The notes: generated by a model not told the origin, from the letters alone. DNA of 63,977 nt, filler included, from a bacterium (GCA_037439705.1; 7 parts of 7 records of this genome joined end to end with filler, not necessarily neighbours in it), one strand, 5' to 3'; shown: positions 4,395 through 30,298, counted from the first letter of the whole stretch. Translations and numbers: made by a program.

Positions 4395-5521
4395 TGCCCC
4401 TTTCCCGAAGGAGTGAAAACATATCCTTCGTTTTCATCGGATTCAAATCCTATATCTGGTCTTGAAACATCATTAACAACTATAAAATCAAGTCCCTTTT
4501 TAATAAGTTTCTCCCTCGCATTTTTTTCAAGCTCTGAGGTCTCCGCAGCAAATCCAACGACAATCCTTTTCCCTTTCCTGGATTTTATTTCGCTCAGTAT
4601 ATCAGGAGTCATTTCAAGCTCAATATCAGGAACTCCCTTTTCTTTTTTTATCTTTCCTTTCACCCTCTTCTTGGATTTAAAATCACATACTGCAGCAGTT
4701 TTTATTATCACATCAGAATTATTTATCTCCTCTTTTACTGCTTCAAGCATCTCTTCAGCAGAAACAACCCTTTTCACCCTCACCCCATCAGGTGGTTTAA
4801 GATTGGTAGGTCCACTTACCAAACAAACCTCAGCCCCCATCCATTTTCCGACTCTGGCAAAAGAATAACCCATTTTACCACTGGACGGATTTGAGATGAA
4901 ACGCACATCGTCTATGAATTCCCTTGTGGGTCCGGCGGTAACGAGCATCTTTTTTCCATCAAAAAATTTAGGAGAGAAAAATTCTTTCACTGCATCCATT
5001 ATCTCCTCTGGTTCCCTCATCCTCCCCTTTCCCGTGAAACCGCAGGCAAGTTCTCCATAACCGGGCTCAAGTATCCTTACCCCCAATTTTTTCAATTTTT
5101 CAATGTTTTCCTGCACAGCAGGATTATTCCACATTCCAGTATTCATTGCAGGACAGAGAAGCAATTTCTGAGGAGGAGGAACGAGAAGGGAAGTTGAAAG
5201 AAGGTCATTGGCGATTCCGTTAGCCAGTTTTCCTATTATATCTGCTGTGGCTGGTGCAACAATTATAAGGTCGCTTTCAACAGGAAATTTCACATGTTTT
5301 ATTGCCACATCGGAATAATCATCAAACATCTCAACAAGAACCTGATTTTCGGATATTGCGTGAAAGGTCGCCCTTCCAACAAACTTTTCACCTGTAGGAG
5401 AAAGGATTACATTCACATCACAGCCCTCTTTCTTCAAAAGCCTCAAAAGTTCAACGCTTTTGTATGCTGAAATTCCTCCGCCCACACACAAAAGGATTTT
5501 TTTCTCCCTCAAAAAATGCAT
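4319..5521 (-). CDS. coaBC: Bifunctional phosphopantothenoylcysteine decarboxylase/phosphopantothenate-cysteine ligase
   Basis: GGISAYK, PAMN, ACGFTGKGRM, TAGPTRE, SNPSSGKMG and GFAAET motifs. Start moved to 5521 because the longer ORF overlaps a tRNA. Confidence 0.96.
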   Translation of the reverse strand: MHFLREKKILLCVGGGISAYKSVELLRLLKKEGCDVNVILSPTGEKFVGRATFHAISENQVLVEMFDDYSDVAIKHVKFPVESDLIIVAPATADIIGKLANGIANDLLSTSLLVPPPQKLLLCPAMNTGMWNNPAVQENIEKLKKLGVRILEPGYGELACGFTGKGRMREPEEIMDAVKEFFSPKFFDGKKMLVTAGPTREFIDDVRFISNPSSGKMGYSFARVGKWMGAEVCLVSGPTNLKPPDGVRVKRVVSAEEMLEAVKEEINNSDVIIKTAAVCDFKSKKRVKGKIKKEKGVPDIELEMTPDILSEIKSRKGKRIVVGFAAETSELEKNAREKLIKKGLDFIVVNDVSRPDIGFESDENEGYVFTPSGKGHHIPKCSKDEFAYRVLELIALKSNL

Positions 5522-5529
5522 TTTATAAA

Positions 5530-5604
5530 TGGTAGGCACGGGCGGTTTCGAACCGCCGACCTCTGCCGCGTCAAGACAGCGCTCTCCCCCTGAGCTACGT
5601 GCCT
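5530..5604 (-). tRNA. tRNA-Val(GAC)
   Basis: Minus strand AGGCACG...CGTGCCT-A-CCA; anticodon arm CTGTC-TTGACGC-GGCAG; T-arm GGTTCGAAACC. Confidence 0.95.
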
Positions 5605-5827
5605 GCTAAAAACAATATACAGAAATTCAAAATTTAAATCAACTTTCAAAGGTTTTACATCACCACTTGATTCCAAGAAAAAAGTCAAAATTCAAGACCT
5701 GGTTTATATAATTCGAGTATAGGAATATAGTAGTGAATAAGAGAAATATACATAATGGGGGTGTGGGGAGACTGAAAAGTTGTGGAAAAGTTAAGATATG
5801 AGCGACATTAAGGAGTGAGAGGGAGAG

Positions 5828-6019
5828 ATGAAGTTTTATTCTATATTTGGTAATATAAGGGGATTTTACAAGAGGAGGTTTCAGGATATGCTTTATAGTT
5901 TGAGAAGATTTTGAGTGTATGAGATAATAAAAAGACCTCACAAATCCCTCGGTCTAAAAAGCCCCTTAAATTTTCTCATTCAAACTCATAAAATGTCGCA
6001 TAAGTATATAACTTATACA
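5828..6019 (+). mobile_element. Internally deleted IS481-like element (MITE-like), copy 1
   Basis: 5847..6019 recurs at 30776..30929, and its 3' end recurs inverted at 20575..20619. Encodes an RPHKSLGLKSP...SHKYITYT integrase-core tail and ends in ...TACA. Confidence 0.65.
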
Positions 6020-6207
6020 ATGTATGGAAAAACTCTTTATGAGAAACTAAAATCAATAATGCCTCATGTGAAAAAAGACATCACCATCTTCCCGTCCTTC
6101 ATACTTGATAAAGTAATTCCATTTTACCAGCATATTCCTTTCACGAGAAAATAAAAAAATAAAAACGGGACACTCAAAGGGTGGTAATGATCTTTATAGA
6201 CAGTACA
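6020..6207 (+). mobile_element. Probable 3' remnant of a second IS481-like transposase
   Basis: MYGKTLYEKLK...FPSFILDKV resembles a transposase C-terminus; segment ends GGTAATGATC...CAGTACA. Confidence 0.4.
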
Positions 6208-6296
6208 CCTAACTCTTTCGGATTAAGCCATAAAAAATTTATATGCTGTAAAAAAATTGAATTGGTGCTTTCTTTCTAATAAAGTAAAAATCAAAG

Positions 6297-7589
6297 ATGA
6301 AAGTTCTTATCGCTCCATGGGGAGACCCTTACAGATGGGAAGAAGTGGAATATGAGGCAGAAGGAGAAATAGTCAAATCAAGAAATTCTACTAAACTTCT
6401 TCTGAATAGCACAGGTGCTACCAGAATTGTAGTTATTGTTCTTGATACACTAAGCGAAGTAAAGGAGTATAAATCTTATTACGAACTCTCTAAAAAAGTA
6501 GAAGAGAAAGTTAAAGAGTATATCAAATCATTTCTCAAGTTAGAACTGAATAAAATAGATGTGGTAGTTGCTCCCGGAGTTGGCAATTTTGAAAACAAAA
6601 TTTTCACCGGAAACATGAAGGACTACTATTCCTTTATTTTGCACGAACTTTCAAACCGCCTTATTCCGGAACAGGATATGATTTCAGTGTATCTCGACCT
6701 TACACACGGAATTAACTTTATGCCCGTTCTTACATATACGGCTGTGAATAAAATCTGTGGAATACTCGCTGTAAAGAAAAAAGTGAATTTCACAGTTTTT
6801 AATTCGGAACCATACACTTCAGGAAGACACAGGCTCTATATTCATAAAGTTATGGAAAAGGAAAAAATGGAATTCAATCCACCGGAAAGAAAGATGCTTG
6901 ACAAACCCCGACTCCTCAAGCCATTATCGGGGTTTCCAGAAGAAGAATTAAAAAACTTTGACAGAAAATATTGTTATTCTCACAAAGACGAAATCAATGC
7001 CTTTCTCGGAGCCCTTCAGGACGGACTACCCTTAGCTATGTTAACTTTTTATCCGGAACTGGAAGAAATAGCAGAAATTTTAAAAAGCAGTGTAGAGGGT
7101 TATAAAAATTATGTGGAAATCAAATTCATTAACGACAATAAAATTCAGGTTCAAAGAAAAACCTGTTTTACATCAAATTTTGATGTGCTCACAGAAGCAT
7201 ATTTATGCACAAGGATAATCGGGTGGAAAAATAAAACCGAAGTCTCTCTGAGCGAACTCGAAGACATGGTCAGAAGTTTATTTAAAGGAAAGGACAGGGT
7301 AAGGTTATGCATAATTGAGAATGAAATTCAGAGCATCAAAAAGAACCTCGATTTCTTTACGGATAGGTGGATGTTATACAGTGAAGCCTATGAGAAAGTT
7401 CACCAGAATGTGAAAGACATAGAAAGCAGAATCAGTTCTCCCCACAAGAGACACTTCTTCGCTCATGCTGGATTTGAACGAAATCTTGTTGAGATGAAAA
7501 AGGAGAATAACGAAATATTCGTAAGGTATAAAGAAACCTCCCTGGATACGGTTAAAAAATGGGCTCAGGAAGGGCTGAAAGAAGAGTGA
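6297..7589 (+). CDS. csx1: CRISPR-associated CARF-HEPN ribonuclease Csx1
   Basis: IAPWGDP N-terminus, DLTHGINFMP CARF motif, C-terminal HEPN RHFFAH (RxxxxH). Confidence 0.9.
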   Translation: MKVLIAPWGDPYRWEEVEYEAEGEIVKSRNSTKLLLNSTGATRIVVIVLDTLSEVKEYKSYYELSKKVEEKVKEYIKSFLKLELNKIDVVVAPGVGNFENKIFTGNMKDYYSFILHELSNRLIPEQDMISVYLDLTHGINFMPVLTYTAVNKICGILAVKKKVNFTVFNSEPYTSGRHRLYIHKVMEKEKMEFNPPERKMLDKPRLLKPLSGFPEEELKNFDRKYCYSHKDEINAFLGALQDGLPLAMLTFYPELEEIAEILKSSVEGYKNYVEIKFINDNKIQVQRKTCFTSNFDVLTEAYLCTRIIGWKNKTEVSLSELEDMVRSLFKGKDRVRLCIIENEIQSIKKNLDFFTDRWMLYSEAYEKVHQNVKDIESRISSPHKRHFFAHAGFERNLVEMKKENNEIFVRYKETSLDTVKKWAQEGLKEE

Positions 7590-8629
7590 GGAAAAAACAT
7601 ATCCTTCTCGCCCTGTGCGGGCTTAATCCTCAGGTTATAACTGAAACATTTTATTATCTCTATGGGATTAAAAAAATCCCGGTTAAGGAAGTTTACCTCA
7701 TCACCACAGGTCCCGGGGAAAGGAAGGCGAAAGAAACCCTTATTGACTCAAAGATATTTTACAGGATGTGTAAGGAATTAAATGCTGAAGATGTGAAATT
7801 CGGCGAGGACACAATTTTTCTGATAACAGATAAAAGAGGAATTCCGTTAGAAGATATCCGCACAATAGAAGATAATGAACGAGTTGCGGAAACAATGTGG
7901 AGTATAATAAAAGATTTTACCGCAGACGAAAATGTAATAATTCACTTCTCGGTGGCGGGAGGAAGAAAAACGATGAGTATCTATGGAGCAATTATAATGT
8001 CTCTTCTCGGGAGAAAGGATGACAGGCTTTATCATATTCTTGTGGAAGAGGAAGAATCAACAGATTTTTATTATCCCCGGAAAAAAGATGAAGAAAAGAA
8101 ACTCCACCTTGTTGAAATACCTTACATCAAGTTAAGGGAGGTGTTCGAAATCTCGGAAGAACATCTGAGTTTTGTCCGCAGAATAAAGAATTATCAGAAA
8201 GAATTGATGAAAATAAGACCATCAAAAATCACCGTAAATTTTGAAGACAAAATAATAAATGCTGGAAGATGCGGTGAATTCAAACTCTCTCCCCGTGAAT
8301 TTTTCGTATATTCGCTATTTATCTCAAAAAGAATGAGTTGTTCCTGCAGGGAAGGTTGCGAAAAATGCTTTTTGAGAATAGACGAATTTCTACAACCTGA
8401 AAATCTCAACTCACATCTTTCTAAATATCTGAGGTATTTTTCTGATATTCAGGAAACCGTTGAAAACCTGAACAAAGAGACCTTGAGAGAACTCATTACC
8501 AGAATAAACAGAAAAATTGACAGAAGCGATATATTTGTCAATTCCCTATTCAAAATCCAGAAAATTGGAAGAGCAAAGAATTATAAATATGGTTTGAAGT
8601 TACCCCGTACAAAGCTCACAATGTTGTAA
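7586..8629 (+). CDS. CRISPR-associated NE0113-family CARF protein (ring nuclease/Csm6-like) with C-terminal Cys cluster and wHTH-like domain
   Basis: GLNPQVITET, LEDIRT and SVAGGRKTMS motifs. GTG start overlaps the csx1 stop (GTGA). Confidence 0.85.
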   Translation: MRKKHILLALCGLNPQVITETFYYLYGIKKIPVKEVYLITTGPGERKAKETLIDSKIFYRMCKELNAEDVKFGEDTIFLITDKRGIPLEDIRTIEDNERVAETMWSIIKDFTADENVIIHFSVAGGRKTMSIYGAIIMSLLGRKDDRLYHILVEEEESTDFYYPRKKDEEKKLHLVEIPYIKLREVFEISEEHLSFVRRIKNYQKELMKIRPSKITVNFEDKIINAGRCGEFKLSPREFFVYSLFISKRMSCSCREGCEKCFLRIDEFLQPENLNSHLSKYLRYFSDIQETVENLNKETLRELITRINRKIDRSDIFVNSLFKIQKIGRAKNYKYGLKLPRTKLTML

Positions 8630-8756
8630 CAATATTTTAAAAATCATCAAACGGGTTTAACCCGAGTAATATTGAAAACAGAAAGATGCCTGGAGAAAAA
8701 AATGGAAGTCTCCTCAGATTTTCAGGTAAGGGCTGAATGATTTAGAAAAAAGCAAA

Positions 8757-9767
8757 ATGGAAAAACGAATAAACCTTTTTATCACTGAACAGGGTTCTGT
8801 GGTAAAAGTTGAGGAAGGCAGACTCGTCATAAAGAAAGGAAGTGAAAGGCTCATAGAGGTTCCTCTCATCCATCTCAGACATGTAGTCCTTTTTGGAAAT
8901 TCCACCATCACTCCCCGTGCTGTTTCGAAACTCCTGAAAGAGGGAGTATTTATTACATTCCTCACAAAACTCGGAAAATTTCAGGGAACAATTCTCCCCG
9001 CGGTTCATCCTGATGGATTGATAAGAAAAATTCAGGTAATGAGAGCAGAAGACCCTTCATTTCGAACAGAGGTGGCAAGAGAAATCGTTGCTACCAAAAT
9101 TCACAATTCAGTGAATTTTTTGAAAACGAGAAGGAAAAACAGGGTTCTGCTCAAAGAAAACATTTTTGAGTTAATAAAAATGGAAGAAAAATTGAAATCC
9201 GCCTCAAGCCTCGATCAGATAAGGGGTATAGAAGGTATCTCATCCCGGATATATTTTTCCACCATACAAAACCTTTTCGTGAACGATTTTTCTTTTGGCG
9301 GAAGAAAAAAACATCCGTCTCCAGACCCTGTCAATGCCCTTCTTTCCCTCTCCTATACCCTTCTCTACTCAATATGCTTTTCATTTCTCCACATTAACGG
9401 ACTTGACCCATTTATTGGATTCTTTCATGAAATGAAAAGAGGACATGCTTCCTTAGCCTCTGACCTTGTAGAAGAATTCAGGGTGCCATTCTGCGATTCT
9501 TTAATTCTGAGGCTCCTGAATCAGGGTTACTTTTCAGAAAGTTCTTTCCTTTACACGGGGGAGGGGGTTTTTCTTGAAAAAAATTCTTTAAAAAGATTTT
9601 TAAAAGAGTTTTCAGCCTTTCTGGACGGAAAGGTAATTTCAGATGGCATTCAGCTTTCAAGATGGCACCTGATTGAACACCAGGTAAGAAAGTTCAGAAG
9701 GAGCATTATAAGTGGAGAACCATACACGGGATATAAAACAGGAGAGACAAACGATGAGGACTCGTAG
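8757..9767 (+). CDS. cas1: CRISPR-associated endonuclease Cas1
   Basis: RGIEG, DPVNALLSLSY, GFFH and LASDLVEEFR motifs; catalytic E/H/E present. Confidence 0.96.
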   Translation: MEKRINLFITEQGSVVKVEEGRLVIKKGSERLIEVPLIHLRHVVLFGNSTITPRAVSKLLKEGVFITFLTKLGKFQGTILPAVHPDGLIRKIQVMRAEDPSFRTEVAREIVATKIHNSVNFLKTRRKNRVLLKENIFELIKMEEKLKSASSLDQIRGIEGISSRIYFSTIQNLFVNDFSFGGRKKHPSPDPVNALLSLSYTLLYSICFSFLHINGLDPFIGFFHEMKRGHASLASDLVEEFRVPFCDSLILRLLNQGYFSESSFLYTGEGVFLEKNSLKRFLKEFSAFLDGKVISDGIQLSRWHLIEHQVRKFRRSIISGEPYTGYKTGETNDEDS

Positions 9768-10077
9768 AATGTATGTGGTTGTAGTTTATGATATAATAGA
9801 AACAGCGGGAAATTTTCGTGAAAAAAGGAAAAACCGAACCCGTCTGTACAAAAAGTTAAAAGGATTTGGCTCACCGGTCCAGTACAGCGTATTTGAATTC
9901 AATCTCACTCCCTCTCAGAGGGAAAAATTAATTGAGGTTATCAATAACTACATAGAAGAAACAGACAGGGTGAGCATCTACACGCTGTGTGAGGAATGCA
10001 GGAAAAGAATAGAACGCCTTTTTACGAAACCGCGCGAAGAACCAATTTTTGATGAAATTTCATCAATAGAGGTTTGA
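9754..10077 (+). CDS. cas2: CRISPR-associated endoribonuclease Cas2
   Basis: VVVYDI, VQYSVFE and DRVSIYTLC motifs; directly after cas1. Confidence 0.95.
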   Translation: MRTRRMYVVVVYDIIETAGNFREKRKNRTRLYKKLKGFGSPVQYSVFEFNLTPSQREKLIEVINNYIEETDRVSIYTLCEECRKRIERLFTKPREEPIFDEISSIEV

Positions 10078-10078
10078 G

Positions 10079-10269
10079 ATGTCCGAAGCAAAATTATATG
10101 TAAAAGGTGCCTATTTCCCCGCATCAGAAGAAATGGAATTTACCATTCTGATAGAATATGATGAAAAACAAATCCTTAAAACAGAAAGGGTAAAGAAGAA
10201 AGGTTCAGCGCTTCAGGCGGAATATCTGGGTCTTATCAGGGCAATCCATTATCTAAAAAACTTAAAAAA
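10079..10269 (+). CDS. RNase H-fold (RNase HI/RVT_3-like) protein, degenerate, truncated by contig end
   Basis: KLYVKGA (canonical xxYxDGA) and SALQAEYLGLIRAI (canonical TNNxAEYxALIxGL). Starts 1 bp after the cas2 stop. Confidence 0.65.
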
Positions 10270-10369
10270 NNNNNNNNNNNNNNNNNNNNNNNNNNNNNNN
10301 NNNNNNNNNNNNNTTAATTAATTAANNNNNNNNNNNNNNNNNNNNNNNNNNNNNNNNNNNNNNNNNNNN
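10270..10369. other. Artificial contig linker (N44-TTAATTAATTAA-N44)
   Basis: Six-frame-stop spacer flanked by Ns. Confidence 0.99.
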
Positions 10370-10467
10370 GGAGAGTAGCACAGGCATTCTTGCCTGTGAG
10401 AAGAAGAGCAAAAAGGAGAGTAGCACAGGCATTCTTGCCTGTGAGAAGAAGAGCAAAAAGGAGAGTA
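10370..10467 (+). repeat. 45-bp tandem repeat (2.2 copies) carrying a GTAG-type REP palindrome
   Basis: Identical units at 10370..10414 and 10415..10459, each with GTAG-CACAGGCA-TTCT-TGCCTGTG. Confidence 0.85.
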
Positions 10468-10611
10468 AGAGAGTGGAGAATTGGTAAAGGTTGGGATGAA
10501 TTTTTTAGAAAAAGAATGGATGTGAGGAAAAAGATAAAAATGAAAAAATTCAAAAATAAACCAATTGCCAAAAATATCCCCTCCTTTTTAAGAGACCATT
10601 TCTATTTTCCC

Positions 10612-10658
10612 TTGACATTTATTACTATTGTAATAAAATTTTAATACTATGGTAAAAA
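10612..10658 (+). promoter_or_regulatory. Sigma70 promoter with two tandem palindromic operator-like sites upstream of the acyl-CoA dehydrogenase pair
   Basis: TTGACA at 10612 and TAAAAT at 10634. TTATTAC-TATT-GTAATAA at 10619..10636, with a 15/18 copy at 10641..10658. Confidence 0.6.
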
Positions 10659-10685
10659 CCTTACAAAACTTTAAGGAGGTGGAAG

Positions 10686-11813
10686 ATGGCAATAGATTTT
10701 TCTTTGAATGAGGACGAGAGGATACTCGTTGAAACCGTAAACGATTTTGCACAGAAAGAGATTGTTCCGAACATAAGAACTATTGAAGAAAACGGCATCT
10801 CTGACGAATTGAGGATAAAGGCTGTTGAGATGGGGTTGATGGGCATAGAATTTCCAGAAAATCTTGGAGGTTCAGGACTTGGAATGTTTCACAGGGTACT
10901 GGTGACCGAAGCAATTTCCTCAGGAGACCCCGGAACGGCGTATTCACTTTTCATTCACCTTCCCTATTCCTATTTTCTTCTTGAACTTGGAAATGAAGAA
11001 ATAAAGGGAAAATATCTCAAACCTGTAATCACAGGAGCGAAAAAAGCCTGCCTTTTGAGGTCTGAATTCTTAACCGATGATGTGATTACACCATTGAAAT
11101 GGGAAAAGAGTAAAGAGGGTTACAAAATTTCTGGAAGGGGAGTAATTGAGGTTGAAAATCCTGATTTTGTCCTTCTTCCTGCAAAATCGGATAATAAAAT
11201 CGGATTTTTTCTTCTTGATGGTTTGAATGCCATTGAGTTCGGAAAAACGCTTCATAGATGTGGTGTTCAATCATCTCCTGCAAAGGAAGTCATTTTTAAG
11301 GATGTTGAATTGAAAGAAAATATGTGTATTACAGAAGATGCTTTTTCACACGAGAACTTTTGGAAGGCAGTGGTTAGGACGAGACTTTTCATATCAAGTA
11401 TTCTTCTCGGATTAGCAAAAACCGCTCAGGAGTATTCCCTCAAATATGCTATGGAAAGGGTAGCTTTTGGTCAGCAGATAGCAAAGCATCAGGCAATATC
11501 CTTTATGCTTGCTGATCTTGCAACACAGGTTGAAGCAATAAGGCTTATACTCTGGAAAGCAGTTTATGAGTTTGACAGAAATTCATCCTCTCCCGAAAAA
11601 CAAATAAGGTCTTCTGTCCTTGACTGGTCAATAGAAGCATACCTTCAGGCAGTAGATTATTCCTCTTCTATTTCTGCAGATGCGGTTCAGATACTCGGCG
11701 GTCACGGATACATAAAAGACCATCCTGTTGAAAAATGGATGAGGGATGTAAAAGAGTTCGCCAATGCGTTCGGAAGACATGATGCTTTCAGAATAGTTAT
11801 TGAAAACCTTTAA
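10686..11813 (+). CDS. Acyl-CoA dehydrogenase family protein, probably non-catalytic partner subunit
   Basis: RVAFGQQI and QILGGHGYIKDHPVEKWMRD present; lacks the ALTEP and C-terminal I(Y/F)EGT motifs. Confidence 0.85.
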   Translation: MAIDFSLNEDERILVETVNDFAQKEIVPNIRTIEENGISDELRIKAVEMGLMGIEFPENLGGSGLGMFHRVLVTEAISSGDPGTAYSLFIHLPYSYFLLELGNEEIKGKYLKPVITGAKKACLLRSEFLTDDVITPLKWEKSKEGYKISGRGVIEVENPDFVLLPAKSDNKIGFFLLDGLNAIEFGKTLHRCGVQSSPAKEVIFKDVELKENMCITEDAFSHENFWKAVVRTRLFISSILLGLAKTAQEYSLKYAMERVAFGQQIAKHQAISFMLADLATQVEAIRLILWKAVYEFDRNSSSPEKQIRSSVLDWSIEAYLQAVDYSSSISADAVQILGGHGYIKDHPVEKWMRDVKEFANAFGRHDAFRIVIENL

Positions 11814-11832
11814 ATTTTAAGGAGGTGAGGCA

Positions 11833-13032
11833 ATGGAGTTAGAGTTAACACCAGCACAAAAAAATGTCATTGAAATGGTGAGGTGGCTTGCTCTTGAAAA
11901 ATTGAGACCACTCGGTCTTGAGTATGATAAAAAGGGAGAACCCATCCCTCCTGATCATCCTTTTTTCAAAGAAGCAAAGGCTATGGGAATAAGGATGGCT
12001 CTTGGAGATATTGGTAAGAGAAGAAAGGAACTCACCACAAAAGAGGGACCGGGCGAGATGGCAAGGCTCGGCATACTCGCTGCGGAGGAGATAGCCTATG
12101 GAGATACGGGCGTTGCTATGAGCCTTCCTGGTCCAGGGCTTGGTGGTCCACCAATACTCATAATGGGCACACCCGAACAGCAGGATAGATTCTTTGGCAT
12201 GCTTGAAGGAGATGAACCGAAATGGGGAGCATACGCGTTGACAGAGCCAGGCGCAGGTTCTGATGTGGCAATGATAAAAACCACCTGCAGAAAGGAAGGA
12301 AATTACTATGTTTTAAATGGGACAAAGATGTTCATAACAAACGGAGCAAGGGCTACATGGAATGTTGTATTTGCTACAATAGACCCATCCCTTGGAAGGG
12401 AAGGGCACAGGGTATTTGTTGTAGAAAAGGGGACCCCAGGCTTTTATGCTGGAAAAATTGAAAAGAAGATGGGATTAAAAGCTTCAGAGACAGCAGAGTT
12501 GGTTTTTGATGAGTGTAAGGTTCCGGTTGAAAACCTTCTCGGAGGCGAGGAAAGGTATAAAGAAAGGGCTGGTTTTAAGGCTGCAATGGAAACTTTCAAT
12601 ATGACAAGGCCTGCTGTTGCAGCAATGGGCATAGGAATAGCGAGAGCGGCATACGAATACACAAGGGATTACTTCAAGGAAAATTACATGCTCTCAAGGC
12701 CAATTCCCCTTTATCATTCAATAAAAGAAAAATTAAATACAATGAAAAGGCTCCTTGATACCGCAAGGCTTCTCTGCTGGAAGGCAGCCTACATGATTGA
12801 TTACAAACTTCCCAATGCAAAGGAGGCATCAATGGCAAAGGCTTATGCTCCCCCTGTCTGTCTATGGGTAACATCAAAGTGTATTGACCTTCTCGGTCAG
12901 GAGGGAACCCTTGAATACCACCATCTTGTTGAGAAATGCTACAGGGACATAAAGGTGTTTGACATATTTGAAGGAACAGGGCAGGCTCAGAGAATTGTTA
13001 TATCAAGGAGGCTATTTTCACAATTTGAATAG
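11833..13032 (+). CDS. Acyl-CoA dehydrogenase
   Basis: YALTEPGAGSD, KMFITNG and RDIKVFDIFEGT motifs. Confidence 0.93.
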   Translation: MELELTPAQKNVIEMVRWLALEKLRPLGLEYDKKGEPIPPDHPFFKEAKAMGIRMALGDIGKRRKELTTKEGPGEMARLGILAAEEIAYGDTGVAMSLPGPGLGGPPILIMGTPEQQDRFFGMLEGDEPKWGAYALTEPGAGSDVAMIKTTCRKEGNYYVLNGTKMFITNGARATWNVVFATIDPSLGREGHRVFVVEKGTPGFYAGKIEKKMGLKASETAELVFDECKVPVENLLGGEERYKERAGFKAAMETFNMTRPAVAAMGIGIARAAYEYTRDYFKENYMLSRPIPLYHSIKEKLNTMKRLLDTARLLCWKAAYMIDYKLPNAKEASMAKAYAPPVCLWVTSKCIDLLGQEGTLEYHHLVEKCYRDIKVFDIFEGTGQAQRIVISRRLFSQFE

Positions 13033-13038
13033 CGAACT

Positions 13039-13884
13039 CTAAATGCAGAGATGATGTTCTCCGGTTTTTGGATTGACCACTAAATTGCCGAATTTTATAA
13101 ATTTTATCCTTCCCGGGTCTCCGGAATAGGGAGTTAGAATTTCAAGTCTGCTCTCTGAATCAAAAGAGTTTATAATGGCAGAAGAAAGCATGAATTCATT
13201 CTCATCAAGAAGTCCTATTAGCCTTCCATTTAAAAGGTTTTCTTTGATATTTTCTTTAAACGATGAAGAATTGAGAACCCTTAAAAATGCATTTTCAAAA
13301 TATCTTCTGAAAGCTGATTCCCTGTATCTTTTTCTTTCTTCAGGACCCCTGGATTTTACCTTGGAAGAGGGACTTATGAACAGAAAATTTTTCGTAAGCG
13401 GAAGCATTGTTTCTCTTATCACAGGAGTAAGTTCTTCCTGCACAAGAATTATTATAAGGTCGAGAGAAAGTATTTTTATCTTTGATTCCTTCAGTGAAAT
13501 AGCCTCATAAGTATTTATATAACCTGTTGTATCAATTACTGTAAAATCTGGATTTCTTTGAATCAGCCACCACTTAAGTTTTAAAACCCCTTTCAAAACC
13601 TCAGGAATCACTCCCGAAGGGCTTATACTTCCTACAAAATAATGAGCTGTTTCCCTTTTCCAATCGTCTTCGTAATAGGCGTTAAGGGTTCCTGGTAATA
13701 AAGAGGACTGACCGAGATCAAGGTCAAGAAAGGCTCTTTTCAAACCTTTTGCACCAGCGATCCTTATAAGAAACTGGCATAAGGTTGTTTTGCCAGTATT
13801 TGTATCTCCGATGACCATTATACTTCCACCATTTTTCATTATATCTTTTATTTGTGGAGTAGAGAGGAGCTCTTCTATTTCCAC
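13039..13884 (-). CDS. Clp1/GRC3-family polynucleotide 5'-kinase
   Basis: Walker A GDTNTGKTT, DLDLGQ, DTTGY and lid ERKRYRE motifs. Confidence 0.85.
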   Translation of the reverse strand: MEIEELLSTPQIKDIMKNGGSIMVIGDTNTGKTTLCQFLIRIAGAKGLKRAFLDLDLGQSSLLPGTLNAYYEDDWKRETAHYFVGSISPSGVIPEVLKGVLKLKWWLIQRNPDFTVIDTTGYINTYEAISLKESKIKILSLDLIIILVQEELTPVIRETMLPLTKNFLFISPSSKVKSRGPEERKRYRESAFRRYFENAFLRVLNSSSFKENIKENLLNGRLIGLLDENEFMLSSAIINSFDSESRLEILTPYSGDPGRIKFIKFGNLVVNPKTGEHHLCI

Positions 13885-13886
13885 TT

Positions 13887-14513
13887 TTATTCAACCGGTT
13901 TTATTATAACCCTTTCCTCCTTCTCATCTATTTCCATATCACAAAATATGGTAGGAGAGTGATTCTTGAGAATCTTAAGAACTTCTATTGCAAGTTTTCT
14001 TATTTCCCACTGGCTTGATGGGTCTCCCCTCAACTGAATTATGTGCCTCCATTCCCTCATATTGGCAGTAACTACTATTTCGGTCTCTGTGGCGTTTGGA
14101 AGAACATACCTTGCATCCTGAGATTTTATTCCAGCTTCCTTCAGTTTTCTGTAAACATCGCGCGCAGTTTGCATAAATTCTTCATAAATTTTAAGGGCTG
14201 AAGGATTTTCTGAAATTGAAGGGGGAGTAATCCACGAAAAATTGCTTTCGTCCACATACCTCTGTGATTTTTGTGTGAATGATGCAATTCTGTGTCTCAC
14301 TAACTGATGGGTTAAAGCCCTTGAAACCCCTTTTATTCTGAATGTAGCCCAGCCGTGTTCAAGCACGGAGTGGTGTCCTCTTTTAAGAAGCATTTTTATA
14401 AATGATTTTTCAGTCCCCTCACCCTCTTTTTCAAAGGATTGATATGATGTCCTTCCTGCCCTTTCTATAACCTTTTCCACCTCAGGGGTTATGCTTATAA
14501 GTTCAACCTTCAT
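13887..14513 (-). CDS. thyX: FAD-dependent thymidylate synthase
   Basis: HHSVLEH, RHRIASFTQKSQRY signature, ARYVLP. Confidence 0.97.
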   Translation of the reverse strand: MKVELISITPEVEKVIERAGRTSYQSFEKEGEGTEKSFIKMLLKRGHHSVLEHGWATFRIKGVSRALTHQLVRHRIASFTQKSQRYVDESNFSWITPPSISENPSALKIYEEFMQTARDVYRKLKEAGIKSQDARYVLPNATETEIVVTANMREWRHIIQLRGDPSSQWEIRKLAIEVLKILKNHSPTIFCDMEIDEKEERVIIKPVE

Positions 14514-15360
14514 CCTTCAAAATTTCAAAATTCATATCAACGGATGGAGCGGAGTGGGTTATACTTCCCATGGAAATATAATTAATTCCCTTTATCCTTT
14601 TAAGCCTTTTTATTCTTTCTTCATCAATTTTTCCTGAAATTTCAACCTCTGCCCTTCCGTTTATCATTTTCACTGCCTTTTTTATTTCTTCATCCGTCAT
14701 GTTATCAAGCATTATTATGTCTGCTCCTGATTCTATGGCGGATTTTACTTCTTCTAATGTTTTCGCTTCCACCTCTATTTTTATAAAAGGGGTTAGCTTT
14801 TTTCTTACCTCCTCCACCGCATCTTTAATAGACCCCACCATCCTTATGTGATTTGTCTTTATAAGAATTCCATCGGAAAGTGAAAACCTGTGGTTGTATC
14901 CTCCTCCAATTCTTACTGCATATTTTTGAAGAGCTCTTAATCCCGGAAGGGTCTTTCTTGTATCCACAAGTTTTATTCCGGTTCCTTCAAGAAGTTCTGA
15001 GATTCTTCTCACATAGGTTGCAATTCCGCTCAGATGGGAAAGTATGTTCAGAGCAATTCTTTCTCCTTTAAATAAAGACCCTGCCCTTCCAGCCACAACT
15101 GCTATTACCTCTTTGTTATCAACCTCCTCTCCATCCTTCTTTAAAGGATTGAAGGAAACCAGGGGATCCACCTTTTCAAAAACAAACCTTGCAACTTCAA
15201 TTCCTGCAAGCACAAACCTTTCTTTTGCTTTTATGAATCCCCTTGCAGAGCAGTCCTTTATTGAGGAAAGATAATCTGTAGTTTTATCTCCGTAAGGAAT
15301 GTCCTCTTCTATTGCTTTATTCACCACATCTTCAATTATGTGCCTGGCTATTTCAATCAT
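14503..15360 (-). CDS. nadC: Nicotinate-nucleotide pyrophosphorylase (carboxylating)
   Basis: DTRKTLPG, NHR, IEVE and IMLDNM motifs. Confidence 0.95.
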   Translation of the reverse strand: MIEIARHIIEDVVNKAIEEDIPYGDKTTDYLSSIKDCSARGFIKAKERFVLAGIEVARFVFEKVDPLVSFNPLKKDGEEVDNKEVIAVVAGRAGSLFKGERIALNILSHLSGIATYVRRISELLEGTGIKLVDTRKTLPGLRALQKYAVRIGGGYNHRFSLSDGILIKTNHIRMVGSIKDAVEEVRKKLTPFIKIEVEAKTLEEVKSAIESGADIIMLDNMTDEEIKKAVKMINGRAEVEISGKIDEERIKRLKRIKGINYISMGSITHSAPSVDMNFEILKDEG

Positions 15361-18008
15361 CCTTTCATCTCCGAGAGAATTTTTATTTTTTCCTGAAGCA
15401 CCTTAATCCTTTCGGAAAGAAGTCCTGCCTCCATCTCCGTTTTTCTGATCACCTCCTCCGGGGCCTTTGAAATGAAGTTTTCGTTTGAAAGTTTCTTCAT
15501 AAGAAAAGAAAGTTCTTCTTCTGCCTTTTTCAACGCTTCCTGTGCCTTTTTTATCTCGTTCTCTCTGTTTATTATTAAGCCCTCTATGTTTATTCCTACT
15601 GCCATATCATCCACTTCCCTGATAACCGTATTTAAAATGTCTTTTGTCGGTTTTTCACATATAACTTCTGCATTCGCCCCTGTTAGATGGGAAATGATGT
15701 ATAAAACTTTATTTATTTCTTTTCCAATGTTTTCGGATGCCCAGATTTTACAAAAAATTTCTCTTTCTTCCCCGATGTTATAATCCGATTTTATGTTTCT
15801 TATTGTGGTAACAATTTTCTTTATTTTTTCAAAAACTTCTGCTTCAGTTTTAAACTCATATTCATCTTTTTGGGGAAAATCTGCTATCATAATGCTTTTT
15901 CTATTGCTTTTGAAATTTTCTGGAATTCTATTCCATATCTCCTCTGTTATGAAAGGAATAACAGGATGAGAAAGTCTTAAGAACTTCTCCAGAACATATA
16001 AAAGGATATTTGATGTATTTTTGCATTTTTCTTCATCACCCTTATAAATGTGATACTTTGCAATTTCTATATACCAGTCACAGAATTCCTTCCAGAGGAA
16101 ATTGTAGATTTCCTGGGCATAAATATTAAACTCGTATTTCTCAAGAGCCCTTTCTGTTTTTTCAATTGTCTCATTTAATTTTGTAAGAATCCATTTGTCT
16201 TCAATTGTAAGTGGCTGGAACCCATCTTCCGAGGGTTTACCTGCAGTGAAAATGAACCTACTTGCATTCCAAATCTTGTTTATGAAATGCTTATATCCTT
16301 CAATTCTTTCTTCTGAAAGTTTTGTGTCCCTTCCCTGAGCGGTCATCGCGGTAAGTGTAAATCTCAGAGCATCGGTTCCGTATTTTTCCACCATATCAAG
16401 TGGGTCAATTACATTTCCTTTTGTCTTGCTCATCTTCTGCCCCGTAGCATCCCTTACCAGAGCGTGTATGTAAACCTTTCTGAATGGCACCTCTTTCATT
16501 ATGTAAAGTCCCATCATCATCATCCTTGCTACCCAGAAGGTTATTATGTCAAAACCTGTTACGAGAAGGGATGTAGGATAGAAGATTTTTAAATCCTTTG
16601 TTTTTTTTGGCCATCCAAGAGTTGAAAAGGGCCACAGAGCAGAACTGAACCATGTATCAAGCACATCTTCATCCTGTTTTATCCTTTCGCTTTTGCAATT
16701 ATTGCATTTCTTCGGCGTGGTCTTTCTTACCATTATATTTCCGCAATCGGAGCAGTAATAGGCTGGAATTCTGTGTCCCCACCATATCTGCCTTGAAATG
16801 CACCAGTCCCTCATATTATTGAGCCAGTGATAATAACCTCCAGTCCACATTTCAGGAATGAAAACTGTCTTTCCTTCCTGAACCGCCTTTAATGCCTCTT
16901 CAGCGAGGGGTTTTGTTTTCACAAACCACTGTTTGGAAAGCAAAGGCTCAACCACAGTTTTGCACCTGTAGCATCTGCCAAGTAAGATTTCATAATTTTC
17001 GGTCCTCTCAAAAAGACCTTTTTCACGGAGTGCTTCTATGATTTTTTCTCTTGCGGAAAATCTGTCAAGCCCCTCAAACTCTCCCGCTTCACGGGTCATT
17101 TTTCCTTCTTCATCTATTACCTTGATGGCTGGAAGATTGCAAGATTTTGCTATTTCAAAATCGTTGAAATCGTGAGCAGGGGTAATTTTCAGGACACCTG
17201 TTCCGAATTCTTCTTCCACATAGGGATGGGTAATTACAGGGATTCTCCTTCCCACAAGTGGGAGTATGGCATATTTTTCATGATATTTCAGATACCTTTC
17301 GTCCCCAGGATTAACTGCAATGGCTGTATCTCCGAGCATTGTTTCGGGTCTTGTAGTGGCAACCGTTAGATATTCCTTTTCACCTTCAATAGGATATCTT
17401 ATGTAGTAAAGTTTTCCATTTTCCTGAGAACTTTCAACCTCAATATCTGCAAGGGCTGTTTTACACCTCGGACACCAGTTTATTATATAATCTCCTCTGT
17501 AAATTAACCCGTCATTCCATAGCCTTATGAAAGCCTCCTTCACTGCCAAACTCAATCCCCCGTCCATCGTGAAACGCTCTCTCGTCCAGTCACAGGAAGA
17601 GCCAAGTTTTTTCAATTGATAGATAATCCTGTTTCCGTACTCCTCCTTCCACTTCCAGACCCTTTCTATAAATTTTTCACGCCCGAGTTCTTCTCTTGTA
17701 AGTCCTTCCTTTGCAAGCTCCCTTTCAACTACATTCTGAGTGGCAATTCCAGCATGGTCTGTTCCGGGCAACCACAATACTTCAAATCCCTTCATCCGTT
17801 TGTATCTTGCCACTATGTCCTGAATTGTGTTGTTGAGGGCGTGTCCCATGTGAAGGGAACCGGTTACATTCGGGGGAGGAATTACCATTGAGAAAGGTGG
17901 TTTTTTTGAATTCAGGTTTGGAGTGAAAAATTTATTTTTTTCCCAGAAGGAATACCATTTGTCCTCTGTCTCTTTGTGGTTGTATGCCTTTTCCATTTTT
18001 TCTTCCAC
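15357..18008 (-). CDS. valS: Valine--tRNA ligase
   Basis: PPPNVTGSLHMGH, DWCISRQIWWGH, KMSKT, C-terminal coiled coil. Confidence 0.98.
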   Translation of the reverse strand: MEEKMEKAYNHKETEDKWYSFWEKNKFFTPNLNSKKPPFSMVIPPPNVTGSLHMGHALNNTIQDIVARYKRMKGFEVLWLPGTDHAGIATQNVVERELAKEGLTREELGREKFIERVWKWKEEYGNRIIYQLKKLGSSCDWTRERFTMDGGLSLAVKEAFIRLWNDGLIYRGDYIINWCPRCKTALADIEVESSQENGKLYYIRYPIEGEKEYLTVATTRPETMLGDTAIAVNPGDERYLKYHEKYAILPLVGRRIPVITHPYVEEEFGTGVLKITPAHDFNDFEIAKSCNLPAIKVIDEEGKMTREAGEFEGLDRFSAREKIIEALREKGLFERTENYEILLGRCYRCKTVVEPLLSKQWFVKTKPLAEEALKAVQEGKTVFIPEMWTGGYYHWLNNMRDWCISRQIWWGHRIPAYYCSDCGNIMVRKTTPKKCNNCKSERIKQDEDVLDTWFSSALWPFSTLGWPKKTKDLKIFYPTSLLVTGFDIITFWVARMMMMGLYIMKEVPFRKVYIHALVRDATGQKMSKTKGNVIDPLDMVEKYGTDALRFTLTAMTAQGRDTKLSEERIEGYKHFINKIWNASRFIFTAGKPSEDGFQPLTIEDKWILTKLNETIEKTERALEKYEFNIYAQEIYNFLWKEFCDWYIEIAKYHIYKGDEEKCKNTSNILLYVLEKFLRLSHPVIPFITEEIWNRIPENFKSNRKSIMIADFPQKDEYEFKTEAEVFEKIKKIVTTIRNIKSDYNIGEEREIFCKIWASENIGKEINKVLYIISHLTGANAEVICEKPTKDILNTVIREVDDMAVGINIEGLIINRENEIKKAQEALKKAEEELSFLMKKLSNENFISKAPEEVIRKTEMEAGLLSERIKVLQEKIKILSEMKG

Positions 18009-18050
18009 TATGAAAGAATTTTATCAAGAAGATTTCAATTTTCAAAAAAA

Positions 18051-18404
18051 TCAGTATTCAAATTCCTCTTCACCAAAACTTTCTTCCTCAGTTGGTATTT
18101 CTTCTTCCTCACCCTCCCACGGGCTTTCATAGGCAGATATAAATCTGTTTCCTTCTTCCTCAAGAAGAACAATAGAACTTCCCTCCTCAATGAATTCCTC
18201 TTCAACAACTATTCTTTCTGTTATCAATTCTCCTTCTTCCACAAAGACTATCTCCATGGTCTCTACACTCATTCCAATCTCTTCAGGTGAAATTACCTCC
18301 CCCTCTATTATTTCTCCTTCCTCTGTGAATATGTAAGCCTTTTCTGCACCTGCTGTCCCCACGATTAGAAAAATTACAAAAATAAAAGTTAATTTTTTCA
18401 TCAA
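18051..18404 (-). CDS. Small secreted Glu-rich hypothetical protein
   Basis: Signal peptide MKKLTFIFVIFLIVGTAGA followed by a highly acidic sequence. Confidence 0.6.
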   Translation of the reverse strand: MMKKLTFIFVIFLIVGTAGAEKAYIFTEEGEIIEGEVISPEEIGMSVETMEIVFVEEGELITERIVVEEEFIEEGSSIVLLEEEGNRFISAYESPWEGEEEEIPTEEESFGEEEFEY

Positions 18405-18445
18405 TTAAATTTTAGCAAATTTTTGCCTGGGATTTCAAGTGAATT

Positions 18446-18820
18446 TTAATTGTCCGGAGTTTCGCCCTTTATTGATTTTATTCTGTTTTCATCATCAACC
18501 AGAACAATTCTTGGTCTCAATCTTTTTACTTCCTCTTCATCGTAGGAGGCATAGCTCAATATTATTATTTTATCCCCAACTGCCACCTTTCTTGCTGCTG
18601 CACCGTTGAGGCATATTACCCCGCTATCCCTTTCGCCTTTTATCACATAGGTCTCAAATCTCTCTCCGTTGTTTATATTGTAGACCTGGACGAGTTCAAA
18701 CTCTTTGAGATCCGCTGCATCCATAAGTTTTTCATCTATGGTGATACTTCCCTCATAGTTGAGGTTTGCTTCGGTTACTGTTGCCCTGTGGATTTTTGAT
18801 TTCATCATCATTCTTTTCAT
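18446..18820 (-). CDS. panD: Aspartate 1-decarboxylase
   Basis: KSKIHRA, YEGS self-cleavage site, LNGAAAR. Confidence 0.97.
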
Positions 18821-19668
18821 TTTCTCACCTCCAGTTTCATATTATCTATAAGCCTTGCCCTGCCGACAAAAACAGCAAGGGCAATAACTGCCTCATTCTC
18901 AATCATTTTTATTGGTTCAAGGGTTAAGGGATGGGCTATCTCCACATAATCTATTTTTGTATGGGGTTCTTTTTCAATTATTTCTTTTGCTTTTTTGATG
19001 AGAACCTCACAATTCCTTTCACCCTGGTGAACCATCCTCTTCACTTCATAAAGGGCTTTTGAAAGGGAAAGAGCAGATTTTCTCTCCTCTTCTGTAAGAT
19101 AAGTGTTCCTTGAACTCATTGCCAGCCCATCCTTTTCCCTTACTGTTGGTCCCGGAATAATTTTTATATCCATATTCAAATCTTTTGTGAGCCTTTCTAT
19201 TATTTTCAATTGCTGATAATCCTTCTCGCCGAAAACCGCATAATGCGGTTTGACTATGTTGAAGAGTTTTGTTACAACTGTGCACACTCCTCTGAAATGT
19301 CCCGGTCTTGACCTTCCGCAGAGATATTTTGACAGTTCTGTAACTTCCACATAGGTCTGATAGTTTTCAGGATACATTTCTTCAACAGACGGTATAAACA
19401 CGAAATCAACCTTTTCTTTTCTTAAAACTGAAAGGTCTCTCTTTTCATCCCTTGGATATGATCTGTAGTCTTCAGATGGTCCAAACTGCGTTGGGTTTAC
19501 AAAAATGCTTACAATAACAATGTCTCCGAATCTCTTCGCAATTCGTACAAGGGAAAGATGACCCTCATGAAGGTATCCCATTGTGGGAACAAAGGCTATT
19601 TCCTTTTCCTTTTTTCTCAGTTCCTCAGAGATTTTCTGCATGGTTTTTATTTTTCTTATGACCTTCAT
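18817..19668 (-). CDS. panC: Pantoate--beta-alanine ligase
   Basis: [22 protein letters not shown] and RLIDN motifs. Confidence 0.97.
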
Positions 19669-20471
19669 CTGTACGAATGCTCCTCTCCGGGAAATTTTCT
19701 TTCTCTCACTTCATCAGCATATTTTTTTATTGCTGAAAGAGTTTTTTCGTAAAGGTTTTCGTACGCTTTTACAAATGTGGGACGCATACCGGGAAATAGT
19801 CCGAGGACATCGTGAATGACAAGTATCTGCCCATCGCATCCAATTCCTGCTCCTATTCCAATTGTGGGAATAGAAAGAGAAGATGTAATTTCAGAAGCAA
19901 GTTCAGCAGGAATACCTTCAAGGACAATGGAGAAAGCCCCTGCTTTTTCAAGCGCCTTGGCATCCCTTTTTAATTTTTCCCTTTTCTCTTCTTCCCTCCC
20001 CTGAACCTTATATCCTCCAAAACTGTGTATCCATTGAGGAGTGAGCCCTATGTGACCCATAACCGGAATTCCGAGTACAGTCAATCTGTGAACGAGTTCC
20101 TCAATCTCCTCTCCCCCTTCTATTTTTACTCCTTCAGCACCGTTTTTCATGGCAAGAACTGCATTCTTAATTCCTTCCTCAATTGAGGATTGATAGCTTC
20201 CGAATGGCATATCAAAAATAAGGAGGGCATTTTTTCTTCCCCTTGCCACAGCTCTCAGATGATAAAGCATTTCCTCCATAGTGACGGGAAGAGTATTTTC
20301 ATAACCGCTGAAAACCATTCCCGCTGAATCTCCAACAAGAATTATATCTACATCTGCTTCATCTGCTATTTTTGAAAATATATAATCGTAGGCTGTGATT
20401 GCTACTATAGGAATTCCTACCTTCCTCTTCTTTATTCCAGGAACTGTTCTCTTTTTTGTGTCCCGGTCCAT
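19665..20471 (-). CDS. panB: 3-methyl-2-oxobutanoate hydroxymethyltransferase
   Basis: [24 protein letters not shown] and GIGAG motifs. Confidence 0.97.
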
Positions 20472-20535
20472 CGGATCCAGGCACCTCTTTTTAATTTAAA
20501 TATAAAGTTGGGTTCCCTTTCGGGATACCCACTTT
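20458..20535 (-). ncRNA. pan RNA motif (two tandem hairpins, each with two bulged A) in the panBCD leader
   Basis: AAAG-UGGGU-A-UCCC-GAAA-GGGA-ACCCA-A-CUUU (20535..20504) and GUG-CCUGG-A-UCC-GAU-GGA-CCGGG-A-CAC (20484..20458). Confidence 0.8.
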
Positions 20536-20540
20536 TTAAC

Positions 20541-20569
20541 ATTATACTCCCCTCAAATTTTCAAGTCAA
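20541..20569 (-). promoter_or_regulatory. Sigma70 promoter of panBCD
   Basis: TTGACT-17 bp-TATAAT on the minus strand, just upstream of the first hairpin. Confidence 0.75.
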
Positions 20570-20574
20570 ATTTT

Positions 20575-20619
20575 TGTATAAGTTATATACTTATGCGACA
20601 TTTTATGAGTTTGAATGAG
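20575..20619 (-). mobile_element. IS481-like MITE right end, at contig end
   Basis: Exact reverse complement of 5975..6019. Confidence 0.7.
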
Positions 20620-20719
20620 NNNNNNNNNNNNNNNNNNNNNNNNNNNNNNNNNNNNNNNNNNNNTTAATTAATTAANNNNNNNNNNNNNNNNNNNNNNNNN
20701 NNNNNNNNNNNNNNNNNNN
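20620..20719. other. Artificial contig linker
   Basis: N44-TTAATTAATTAA-N44. Confidence 0.99.
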
Positions 20720-21092
<373 letters not shown>

Positions 21093-21137
21093 TTTGCCTT
21101 AACTTACAATGTATTCAGTTTTTTAGATTTTAAAAGC

Positions 21138-21255
21138 TTCCGGTGCCCATACCGGAGGGGAAACACCCGTTCCCATTCCGAACACGGTCGTTAAGCCCTC
21201 CAGGGCCGATGGTACTGCCTCCCCGTTGAGGCGGGAGAGTAGGACGGTGCCGGAA
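21138..21255 (+). rRNA. rrf: 5S rRNA
   Basis: CCCATTCCGAACAC, GCCGATGGTACT and GGGAGAGTAGG conserved blocks; terminal stem TTCCGG/CCGGAA. Confidence 0.96.
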
Positions 21256-21266
21256 GCTTTTTTATT

Positions 21267-26583: not shown

Positions 26584-26592
26584 TTTTCCTCC

Positions 26593-27234: not shown

Positions 27235-27341
27235 AGGATTTCTCAAATCTTTGCCCCGGAATAATTTTTTTTTCCAGTTTAAGGAGGAGAGGGGGCTAAT
27301 TTAAGAAAATATAATAGAGGTTCTTTATACCTGATACTGTT

Positions 27342-30284: not shown

Positions 30285-30298
30285 AGAGAGGGTAGAAA

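Follow-up and report, generated by a model that had tools for sequence, protein, structure and literature searches.

A csx1–NE0113–cas1–cas2 block with a cas2-coupled RNase H-fold gene is probably the 5′ part of a CRISPR-Cas locus of type III, cut by a contig end

The window analyzed here, 63,977 nucleotides from a bacterial assembly (GCA_037439705.1) in which seven pieces are joined end to end with filler, carries at positions 6297–10269 five co-oriented genes: csx1, a gene for an NE0113-family CARF protein, cas1, cas2, and the beginning of a small open reading frame (ORF), here called ORF5, whose relatives have an RNase HI fold. We conclude that this is probably no self-contained cassette: the contig most likely ends within a type III (III-A-like) CRISPR-Cas locus, of which the block is the 5′ part. 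The locus is read as cut by the assembly because an artificial joiner follows it directly (10270–10369), because the contig is 10,269 bp long and because the related operon in the metagenome locus L081 continues past ORF5; the type III-A context is suggested by the more distant NE0113 loci L036 and L099, which are canonical type III-A. Four of the genes are ordinary members of their families, and the one modestly novel element of the block is the cas2-coupled RNase H-like gene, which is predicted to encode a pseudo-nuclease.

The right-hand end of the block is a true contig end. The joiner at 10270–10369 (unstranded) has the form N44-TTAATTAATTAA-N44, and six such linkers occur in the window (10270–10369, 20620–20719, 30930–31029, 41237–41336, 51537–51636 and 61678–61777). 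The pieces between them stand in falling order of size (10269, 10250, 10210, 10207, 10200 and 10041 bases), with an extra scaffold gap of 10 Ns at 23901–23910; since the window is thus a chain of size-sorted contigs, gene neighborhoods across the linkers are meaningless. Database records for the window's own NE0113 and Cas1 proteins also give a source contig of exactly 10269 bp. ORF5 is interrupted after 63 codons because the contig stops at 10269, and the acyl-CoA dehydrogenase genes to the right of the linker belong to a different contig. With the assembly break inside ORF5, that neither cas10 nor cas6 nor an array follows on the right says nothing about the genome. The initial annotation had taken the block for a stand-alone signaling-plus-adaptation cassette; this is not supported, as the block ends only where the contig ends, L081 runs on to an APE2256-family CARF gene and cas6, and in the wider family NE0113 genes lie inside or beside csm operons. 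Its expectation that a Cas10 is needed elsewhere is supported.

Neither cas10 nor csm/cmr genes were found by Pfam and NCBIfam scans of the 10.3-kb contig, which breaks off inside ORF5; when 151 window ORFs were compared by tblastn with 160 cas-rich loci, no cas-like ORF came up in the six other contig pieces, and no CRISPR array is present anywhere in the seven pieces. The next contig opens (10370–10459) with an exact 45-nt tandem duplicate that has no spacers, and hence is no CRISPR array. The reads of three sequencing runs yielded seven short low-depth pieces in one run (12% of sampled words) and one partial piece in a second; none of the pieces reached the contig end at 10269, and there was no loose end there.

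Relatives of the NE0113 protein number 387 at E ≤ 0.001, and an alignment of 16 was used to fetch 80 genome and 80 metagenome loci. Of the loci that could be fetched, the nearest is L081, a metagenome contig of 4,951 bp whose products are 46% (NE0113), 57% (Cas1) and 72% (Cas2) identical to those of the window, with ORF5 41% identical over 61 aa. From the start of the contig its order is NE0113, a 51-aa ORF, cas1, cas2 and ORF5 (150 aa), the spacing between cas2 and ORF5 again being 1 nt, so that conservation of the NE0113–cas1–cas2–ORF5 order, for which the initial annotation had suggested a search in other genomes, is seen directly. Beyond ORF5 follow the APE2256-family CARF gene (PF09651, 4.5e-24), whose product also matches an NCBIfam ring-nuclease model below its cut-off, then cas6 (TIGR01877, 1.1e-18), and finally 238 nt of non-coding DNA before the contig ends. 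The 51-aa ORF (L081:1116–1271), directly before cas1, has two C-x2-C pairs and a weak match to a double zinc ribbon (E 0.012); this zinc-ribbon-like ORF has no counterpart in the gap between NE0113 and cas1 in the window.

Among the more distant loci, L036, from a metagenome-assembled genome of Thermodesulfovibrio, has ftsEX-envC-ctpA-tRNA and then APE2256-csx1-NE0113-cas10/csm1-csm2-csm3-csm4-csm5, and L099 has cas10/csm1-csm2-csm3-csm4-csm5-NE0113-(121-aa ORF)-cas1-cas2 followed by an 18-repeat array. The window block shares with these loci the csx1 gene directly upstream of NE0113 (L036), cas1-cas2 downstream of it (L099) and the tight, co-oriented packing; it differs in that its 10.3-kb contig shows no cas10/csm or array, in the extra RNase H-like gene after cas2, and in an NE0113 protein that is just 29–31% identical to theirs. 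In its module order, the block is a variant of NE0113-bearing type III-A loci. In L001, csm genes, cas6 and an 11-repeat array precede NE0113, after which come a SAVED-like ORF, a Cas4/Cas1 fusion and cas2; L082 has a Csx14-like CARF gene, cas6, a gene for a TIGR02710 CARF protein, NE0113 and a Cas4/Cas1 fusion. Both loci carry, between NE0113 and the fusion, an ORF of about 200 aa with a partial SAVED match (L001:11209–11823, 2e-7; L082:6732–7316, 1e-8). Arrays stand beside NE0113-cas1-cas2 in L001, L004, L085 and L099.

Over all 160 NE0113 loci, tblastn finds csm genes in 70, cas10 in 65 and cas1 in 30; these counts and those given next are lower bounds, as a single query set was used (the L036 Csm proteins for csm) and many loci are short. 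A csx1 gene like that of the window lies beside NE0113 in only one of the 160, L036. Where at least 3 kb is available downstream of NE0113 (104 loci), a same-strand cas10 is found within 3 kb in 44 and cas1 in 7; cas1 lies within 5 kb upstream of NE0113 in 15/160 loci.

The window's own Cas1 clade comprises 14 clusters at 48–70% identity. Contigs of equal size turn up in both the NE0113 and the Cas1 protein lists (6207, 30371, 47344, 18880 and 4932 bp), one of 11404 bp recurs in the NE0113, Cas1 and ORF5 lists, and sizes of 2055 and 3868 bp recur in both the Cas1 and the ORF5 lists; we infer from equal size that these clade members share a contig. One Cas1, 55% identical, is labeled Calditerrivibrio nitroreducens. 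A Cas1 search of the phylum to which the Deferribacter locus L031 belongs, covering its 68 representative genomes, gave best matches of 32–34% identity and no clade member, and the window Cas1 as sole query found no related loci among genome contigs or viral contigs.

ORF listing and family scans agree with the initial annotation on the five co-oriented genes and on what they are, with csx1, NE0113, cas1 and cas2 all above curated family cut-offs. The csx1 gene (6297–7589, + strand) encodes a 430-aa CARF-HEPN protein with Csx1_CARF (PF22230, 4.3e-41) at residues 3–172 and Csx1_HEPN (PF09455, 5e-18) at residues 339–412; it scores 264 bits (2.7e-78) with the equivalog TIGR01897, for which the cut-off is 110, and its HEPN R-X4-H motif is RHFFAH at residues 385–390. 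It is predicted to be an RNase switched on by cyclic tetra-adenylate (cA4). The NE0113 gene (7559–8629, + strand) matches PF09623 (1e-36, 127.1 bits vs 23) and TIGR02584 (1.3e-43, 149.4 bits vs 80.65). Its product has 356 aa if it starts at ATG 7559; GTG 7586 is the more likely start, because it fits relatives of 348 aa and makes a GTGA overlap with the csx1 stop. The cas1 gene (8757–9767, + strand; 336 aa) covers 282 of the 283 positions of PF01867 (1.6e-83, 280.6 bits), scores 255.3 bits with TIGR00287 (cut-off 71.7), and has the motifs GIEG, KHPS, ASDL and EEFR, in which we take the catalytic residues to sit, at residues 157, 185, 234 and 239; no Cas4 or reverse-transcriptase domain was found in it with Pfam and NCBIfam. 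For cas2 (9754–10077, + strand; ferredoxin-like Cas2 domain PF09827, 4.5e-20, 72.1 bits vs 23.8; TIGR01573, 2.9e-16), the longest ORF begins at GTG 9712; the start is set at ATG 9754 because the resulting 107 aa are 72% identical to the L081 Cas2 from residue 1. Its Y12 and D13, the N-terminal Y-D motif, are invariant in eight aligned Cas2 sequences. ORF5 (10079–10269, + strand) was recognized by tblastn to L081:2596–3048 and represents the first 63 codons of a protein of about 150 aa in its relatives.

Three of the four junctions between these genes are tight: csx1 and NE0113 overlap by 31 nt from ATG 7559, or as GTGA from GTG 7586, cas1 and cas2 overlap by 14 nt, and 1 nt separates cas2 from ORF5. 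The fourth, from NE0113 to cas1, is a gap of 127 nt.

The 63-aa fragment of ORF5 itself has no NCBIfam match and no Pfam family match even at E ≤ 10, and no longer relatives of it were found, so its description as RNase H-like is borne out through the L081 relative, the window holding only residues 1–63. The relative (L081:2596–3048) matches RVT_3 (PF13456) at 1.8e-4 (21.8 bits vs 21.6), an NCBIfam RNase HI model at 3.1e-10, below its cut-off, and S. tokodaii RNase HI chains at 2.4e-4. Its structure model has a predicted local distance difference test score (pLDDT) of 82.7, the best Foldseek match being S. tokodaii RNase HI (3aly_A, 2.1e-10) with template modeling scores of 0.69/0.73, and the ESM Atlas agrees with the RNase HI fold. 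An exhaustive search of 1.84 billion representatives returned 92 matches at E ≤ 0.001, just 6 of them at E ≤ 1e-10 and all of about 150 aa; the matches beyond these best 6 look like ordinary RNase H-like proteins.

The active site of the family is incomplete. In one alignment, the four carboxylates (D-E-D-D) are not all present: the first position is K in 6/8 members, the window fragment among them, L in 1/8 and D in 1/8; the second, the E of an AEY motif, is kept in 8/8, including the window; the third is T, I, T, S, N, K and T, with D in 0/7 full-length members; and the fourth is E or D in both alignments made, although it aligned poorly. Ordinary RNase H-like sequences in the same alignment have D-E-D-D/N in 9/9. 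Specific to the family are a C-terminal helix and an acidic tail, which finishes with E-D-[LIV]-W-[VKT]. We conclude from the catalytic residues that the family is a predicted pseudo-nuclease with an RNase H fold. Compared with archaeal-type RNase HI (S. tokodaii 2ehg/3aly, RVT_3), it retains the fold and the AEY glutamate; it differs in the replaced first and third aspartates, in the C-terminal helix and acidic tail, and in its coupling to cas2.

DEDDh exonucleases, too, have an RNase H-like fold, and like Cas4 and the DEDDh domain that some Cas2 proteins carry, ORF5 occupies a position beside cas2 in the adaptation module; unlike them, its family has no Cas4 match and no intact DEDD set, and is predicted to be non-catalytic. 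A Cas4- or DEDDh-like trimming role is thus unlikely, because the family lacks the first and/or third catalytic aspartate. The proposal of the initial annotation that ORF5 fills the slot of a Cas4 or DEDDh prespacer processor is, on the same residues, not supported, the third aspartate being absent in 7/7 full-length members and the first in 7/8, the window included.

The ORF5 profile has no match in viral contigs. In the same 68 genomes of the Deferribacter phylum it matches in 23, at best with 56.6 bits; five of these 23 were inspected and proved to be ordinary D-E-D-D RNase H genes with no adjoining cas1/cas2. In the literature we found no paper on an RNase HI-like protein coupled to cas2, a search that did not cover the supplementary tables of PMC12669027 (Crf families) and PMC12409355. 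An RNase H-fold nuclease of a different family, DUF3800, is described in VI-F and V-A2 (class 2) loci in PMC12669027.

The second protein of interest is NE0113, for which an AlphaFold model from the 16-row alignment has a mean pLDDT of 84.1. Residues 11–194 form a Rossmann-like CARF domain, which superposes on the ring nuclease Sso2081 (Z 13.8, root-mean-square deviation (rmsd) 2.3 over 146 residues) and on the CARF domain of the Cad1 deaminase (Z 13.9), with Csm6, Card1 and Can2 matching too. Residues 221–356 match the DNA-binding domains of CadC (Z 8.8), GlnR (8.4), VanR (8.1) and ToxR (8.0), with rmsd 2.8–3.3 over 89–99 residues, Z values that are close to the tool's background of 7–8, and there is no Pfam match for residues 215–356. 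The model thus gives moderate support to an OmpR-class winged helix at residues 221–356, in keeping with the CARF–winged-helix call of the initial annotation. It also accords with Makarova et al. (2014, PMC4012209), where NE0113 is, like Csa3, a predicted transcription regulator. Inserted in the winged-helix domain, at residues 261–270 (window 8339–8368), is a cysteine cluster, C-x-C-x2-G-C-x2-C. Of the 16 aligned proteins the 11 closest, counting that of the window, carry this possible zinc knuckle, and the others lack it.

TIGR02584 is named a ring nuclease in NCBIfam, and the protein also matches the Csx14 model (1.9e-11, below cut-off). A profile alignment places the G-L-T-P motif of the NE0113 family on G-T-S-P of Sso2081 and aligns the GGxK lysine. 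This lysine is kept (AGGRK from residue 133; K137 is invariant in the alignment), but the Ser/Thr position, presumably Ser11 of Sso2081, is Asn in the window protein (GLNPQV from residue 21) and in two other rows of the 16, and Thr in 13/16, so that the residue set of a Crn1-type ring nuclease is incomplete in the window NE0113. In Crn1, the conserved Ser/Thr after the first strand and the GGxK lysine are crucial for cA4 cleavage, as stated in PMC8284326. Since Asn replaces this catalytic Ser/Thr, the window copy may bind the messenger without cleaving it, and hence sense it. With Crn1 (Sso2081, Sis0455) and the predicted ring nuclease Csx14 the protein shares the CARF fold, and it aligns with them at the N-terminal motif G-x-[ST]-P as well as at the GGxK lysine; it differs from Crn1 in the Asn and in the extra winged-helix domain of 135 residues.

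A precedent lies in Csa3a and Csa3b of Sulfolobus islandicus: there too a CARF sensor is fused with a DNA-binding domain, and its gene lies beside cas1-cas2. The whole NE0113 model matches cA4-bound Csa3 (6wxq) with Z 9.2, but with rmsd 9.2, and the two belong to different CARF families, the Csa3 model TIGR01884 having no match to the window protein; the window's DNA-binding domain is of the OmpR/CadC/ToxR class, in a bacterial and type III-A-like context. PMC5587795 has Csa3a activating adaptation genes in Sulfolobus, and together with PMC7480081 it makes Csa3a/Csa3b the archaeal precedent for CARF regulators of adaptation and interference genes; Csa3 binds cA4 (title of PDB 6wxq; PMC8284326). 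Our literature search found no experiment on the NE0113 CARF–winged-helix family and no paper that combines CARF, winged helix, OmpR and cyclic oligoadenylate (cOA).

Several observations weigh against a type III locus cut by the contig end. Neither cas10, csm/cmr nor an array is seen in the DNA of the window's own clade (the window contig and L081): cas10 is absent from the 1.9 kb after ORF5 in L081, the 238-nt tail there is not an array, and no cas-like ORF turned up in the window's other six contig pieces. The left flank is housekeeping (coaBC, tRNA-Val), so any effector genes must lie to the right or elsewhere. NE0113 followed by cas1 is a minority arrangement (7/104 loci), the best subtype models for Cas1, I-D and I-G, are not type III-specific, and the regulatory role and ligand of NE0113, as well as contact of ORF5 with Cas1–Cas2, are putative. 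The housekeeping border, the 1.9 kb of L081 (the sole close relative with downstream DNA) and the absence of csm genes from all visible DNA of the clade would also suit a separate signaling-plus-adaptation island that acts in trans with an array and a type III locus at other places in the genome, and Hoikkala et al. (2025, PMC12409355) report ring nucleases from 31 loci that lack an effector, for which they suggest roles in trans. This island, which keeps some weight because no effector gene is seen in the clade, we hold to be unlikely: on the right the block stops at an assembly break within a gene, so that absence there is unreadable, L081 continues with cas6, a gene for CRISPR RNA processing that fits beside an array or effector genes, and in 44/104 more distant loci cas10 stands directly after NE0113. 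There is only a slim chance that the block belongs to a type I (I-D- or I-G-like) or mixed I/III locus, in which cas1-cas2 would work for a Cascade-type system, with csx1 and NE0113 as passengers. The best scores of Cas1, which are below cut-off, do come from Cas1d (247.8 bits) and, at 240.7 bits, from the Cas1 portion of Cas4g/Cas1g, the distant L001 and L082 have fusions of the Cas4g/Cas1g type above cut-off, and the sub-threshold Csx14 match of NE0113 points the same way; yet L001 with its fusion also has csm genes by tblastn (L082 has none in its 9 kb), cas3, cas8 and a type I cas7 are seen in no annotated relative, and Csx1 is established to need the Cas10-made messenger.

Quite improbable, too, is that ORF5 is an active nuclease in the Cas4/DEDDh slot, processing prespacers or removing RNA from RNA/DNA hybrids during spacer capture. 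The RNase HI fold would suit such a role, as would the position 1 nt after cas2 in two loci, the lack in the clade's Cas1 of the Cas4 domain that L001 and L082 carry, and the retained AEY glutamate (8/8); the acidic residue aligned at the fourth catalytic position in both alignments makes an unusual active site possible, and so speaks against a pseudo-nuclease. On the other side stand the first aspartate, replaced by Lys in six of the eight members and Leu in one and retained in one, the third position, which is Thr, Ile, Ser, Asn or Lys in all seven full-length members, and the ordinary RNase H-like sequences, all nine of which keep D-E-D-D/N. A type III locus cut by the assembly, with a predicted non-catalytic ORF5, therefore remains the reading we prefer.

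The left boundary of the cas region is a tRNA-Val gene (5530–5604, − strand), called by ARAGORN and Rfam and the sole match of an Rfam scan, beyond which lies coaBC (TIGR00521). Scans of 5500–10269 for promoters and terminators gave results near shuffle expectation. In both the window (5530–5604) and L036 (4266–4349) the cas block begins directly after a tRNA gene that stands behind housekeeping genes, which may mark an insertion hot spot. Between tRNA-Val and csx1 lies a dispersed repeat of about 170 nt (5847–6020). A copy, 87% identical over 171 nt, terminates the piece 20720–30929 (30776–30929), and an exact 46-nt part on the other strand terminates the piece 10370–20619 (20574–20619); since copies stand at their ends, two further contigs of the assembly break at this repeat, which may be a small mobile or repetitive extragenic palindromic (REP)-like element. 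Next to it at the end of one of these contigs is a 98-aa ORF (30299–30595) for an MNT-type nucleotidyltransferase (PF01909, 1.2e-14), a kind that occurs in HEPN-MNT toxin–antitoxin pairs.

A candidate regulator site, which we offer as a lead and not a finding, lies 507 nt upstream of csx1: a 16-mer at 5774–5789 (+ strand) that consists of two tandem units, each about 11 nt long. There is one exact copy in the window and one among 163 fetched loci, the latter at L081:4899–4914 in that locus's non-coding tail, inside the loop of an inverted repeat (about 11 bp). Both copies are non-coding and flank homologous cas genes. OmpR-class domains usually target tandem direct repeats.

Put together, the genes suggest the following course of events. 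A Cas10 complex, encoded downstream or on another contig, would make cyclic oligoadenylate on meeting target RNA; Csx1 would then be switched on as an unspecific HEPN RNase and degrade RNA. The CARF domain of NE0113 would bind the same messenger, with its Asn perhaps sensing rather than cleaving it, and the OmpR-type winged helix would regulate transcription, possibly including that of cas1-cas2 right behind, in parallel to archaeal Csa3a. Cas1–Cas2 would insert spacers, and ORF5, translationally coupled to cas2, would most likely assist the integrase without catalysis, by binding nucleic acid or as a scaffold. By analogy with Csa3a, a coupling of cOA sensing to adaptation, as suggested by the initial annotation, is a reasonable inference. 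A more far-reaching proposal, which we regard as doubtful, is that ORF5 is a new accessory dedicated to Cas1–Cas2 in a small type III-associated clade. Lacking catalytic activity, this module would bind hybrids or duplexes and hand nucleic acid to the integrase (for example by marking transcribed invader DNA or RNA:DNA hybrids) or dock it through its conserved acidic E-D-x-W tail, with expression under the control of a cOA-sensing CARF/OmpR-type regulator bound to a tandem TGTGGAAAAGT-like repeat.

For the most part the finding corrects an artifact: what appeared to be a stand-alone cassette is the visible end of what is probably a type III locus in a fragmented assembly. Beyond this, it brings to light a rare RNase H-fold family lacking a full active site, whose genes in at least two loci are translationally coupled to cas2, with three more suggested by contigs of equal size; to our knowledge, little is known of helpers of Cas1–Cas2 in type III systems. 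A bacterial CARF protein with a putative OmpR-type winged helix, encoded directly before cas1-cas2, parallels the link that archaeal Csa3a makes from cOA signaling to spacer uptake. If the joint proposal of accessory and regulator were true, it would describe a bacterial circuit in which type III signaling turns on spacer acquisition.

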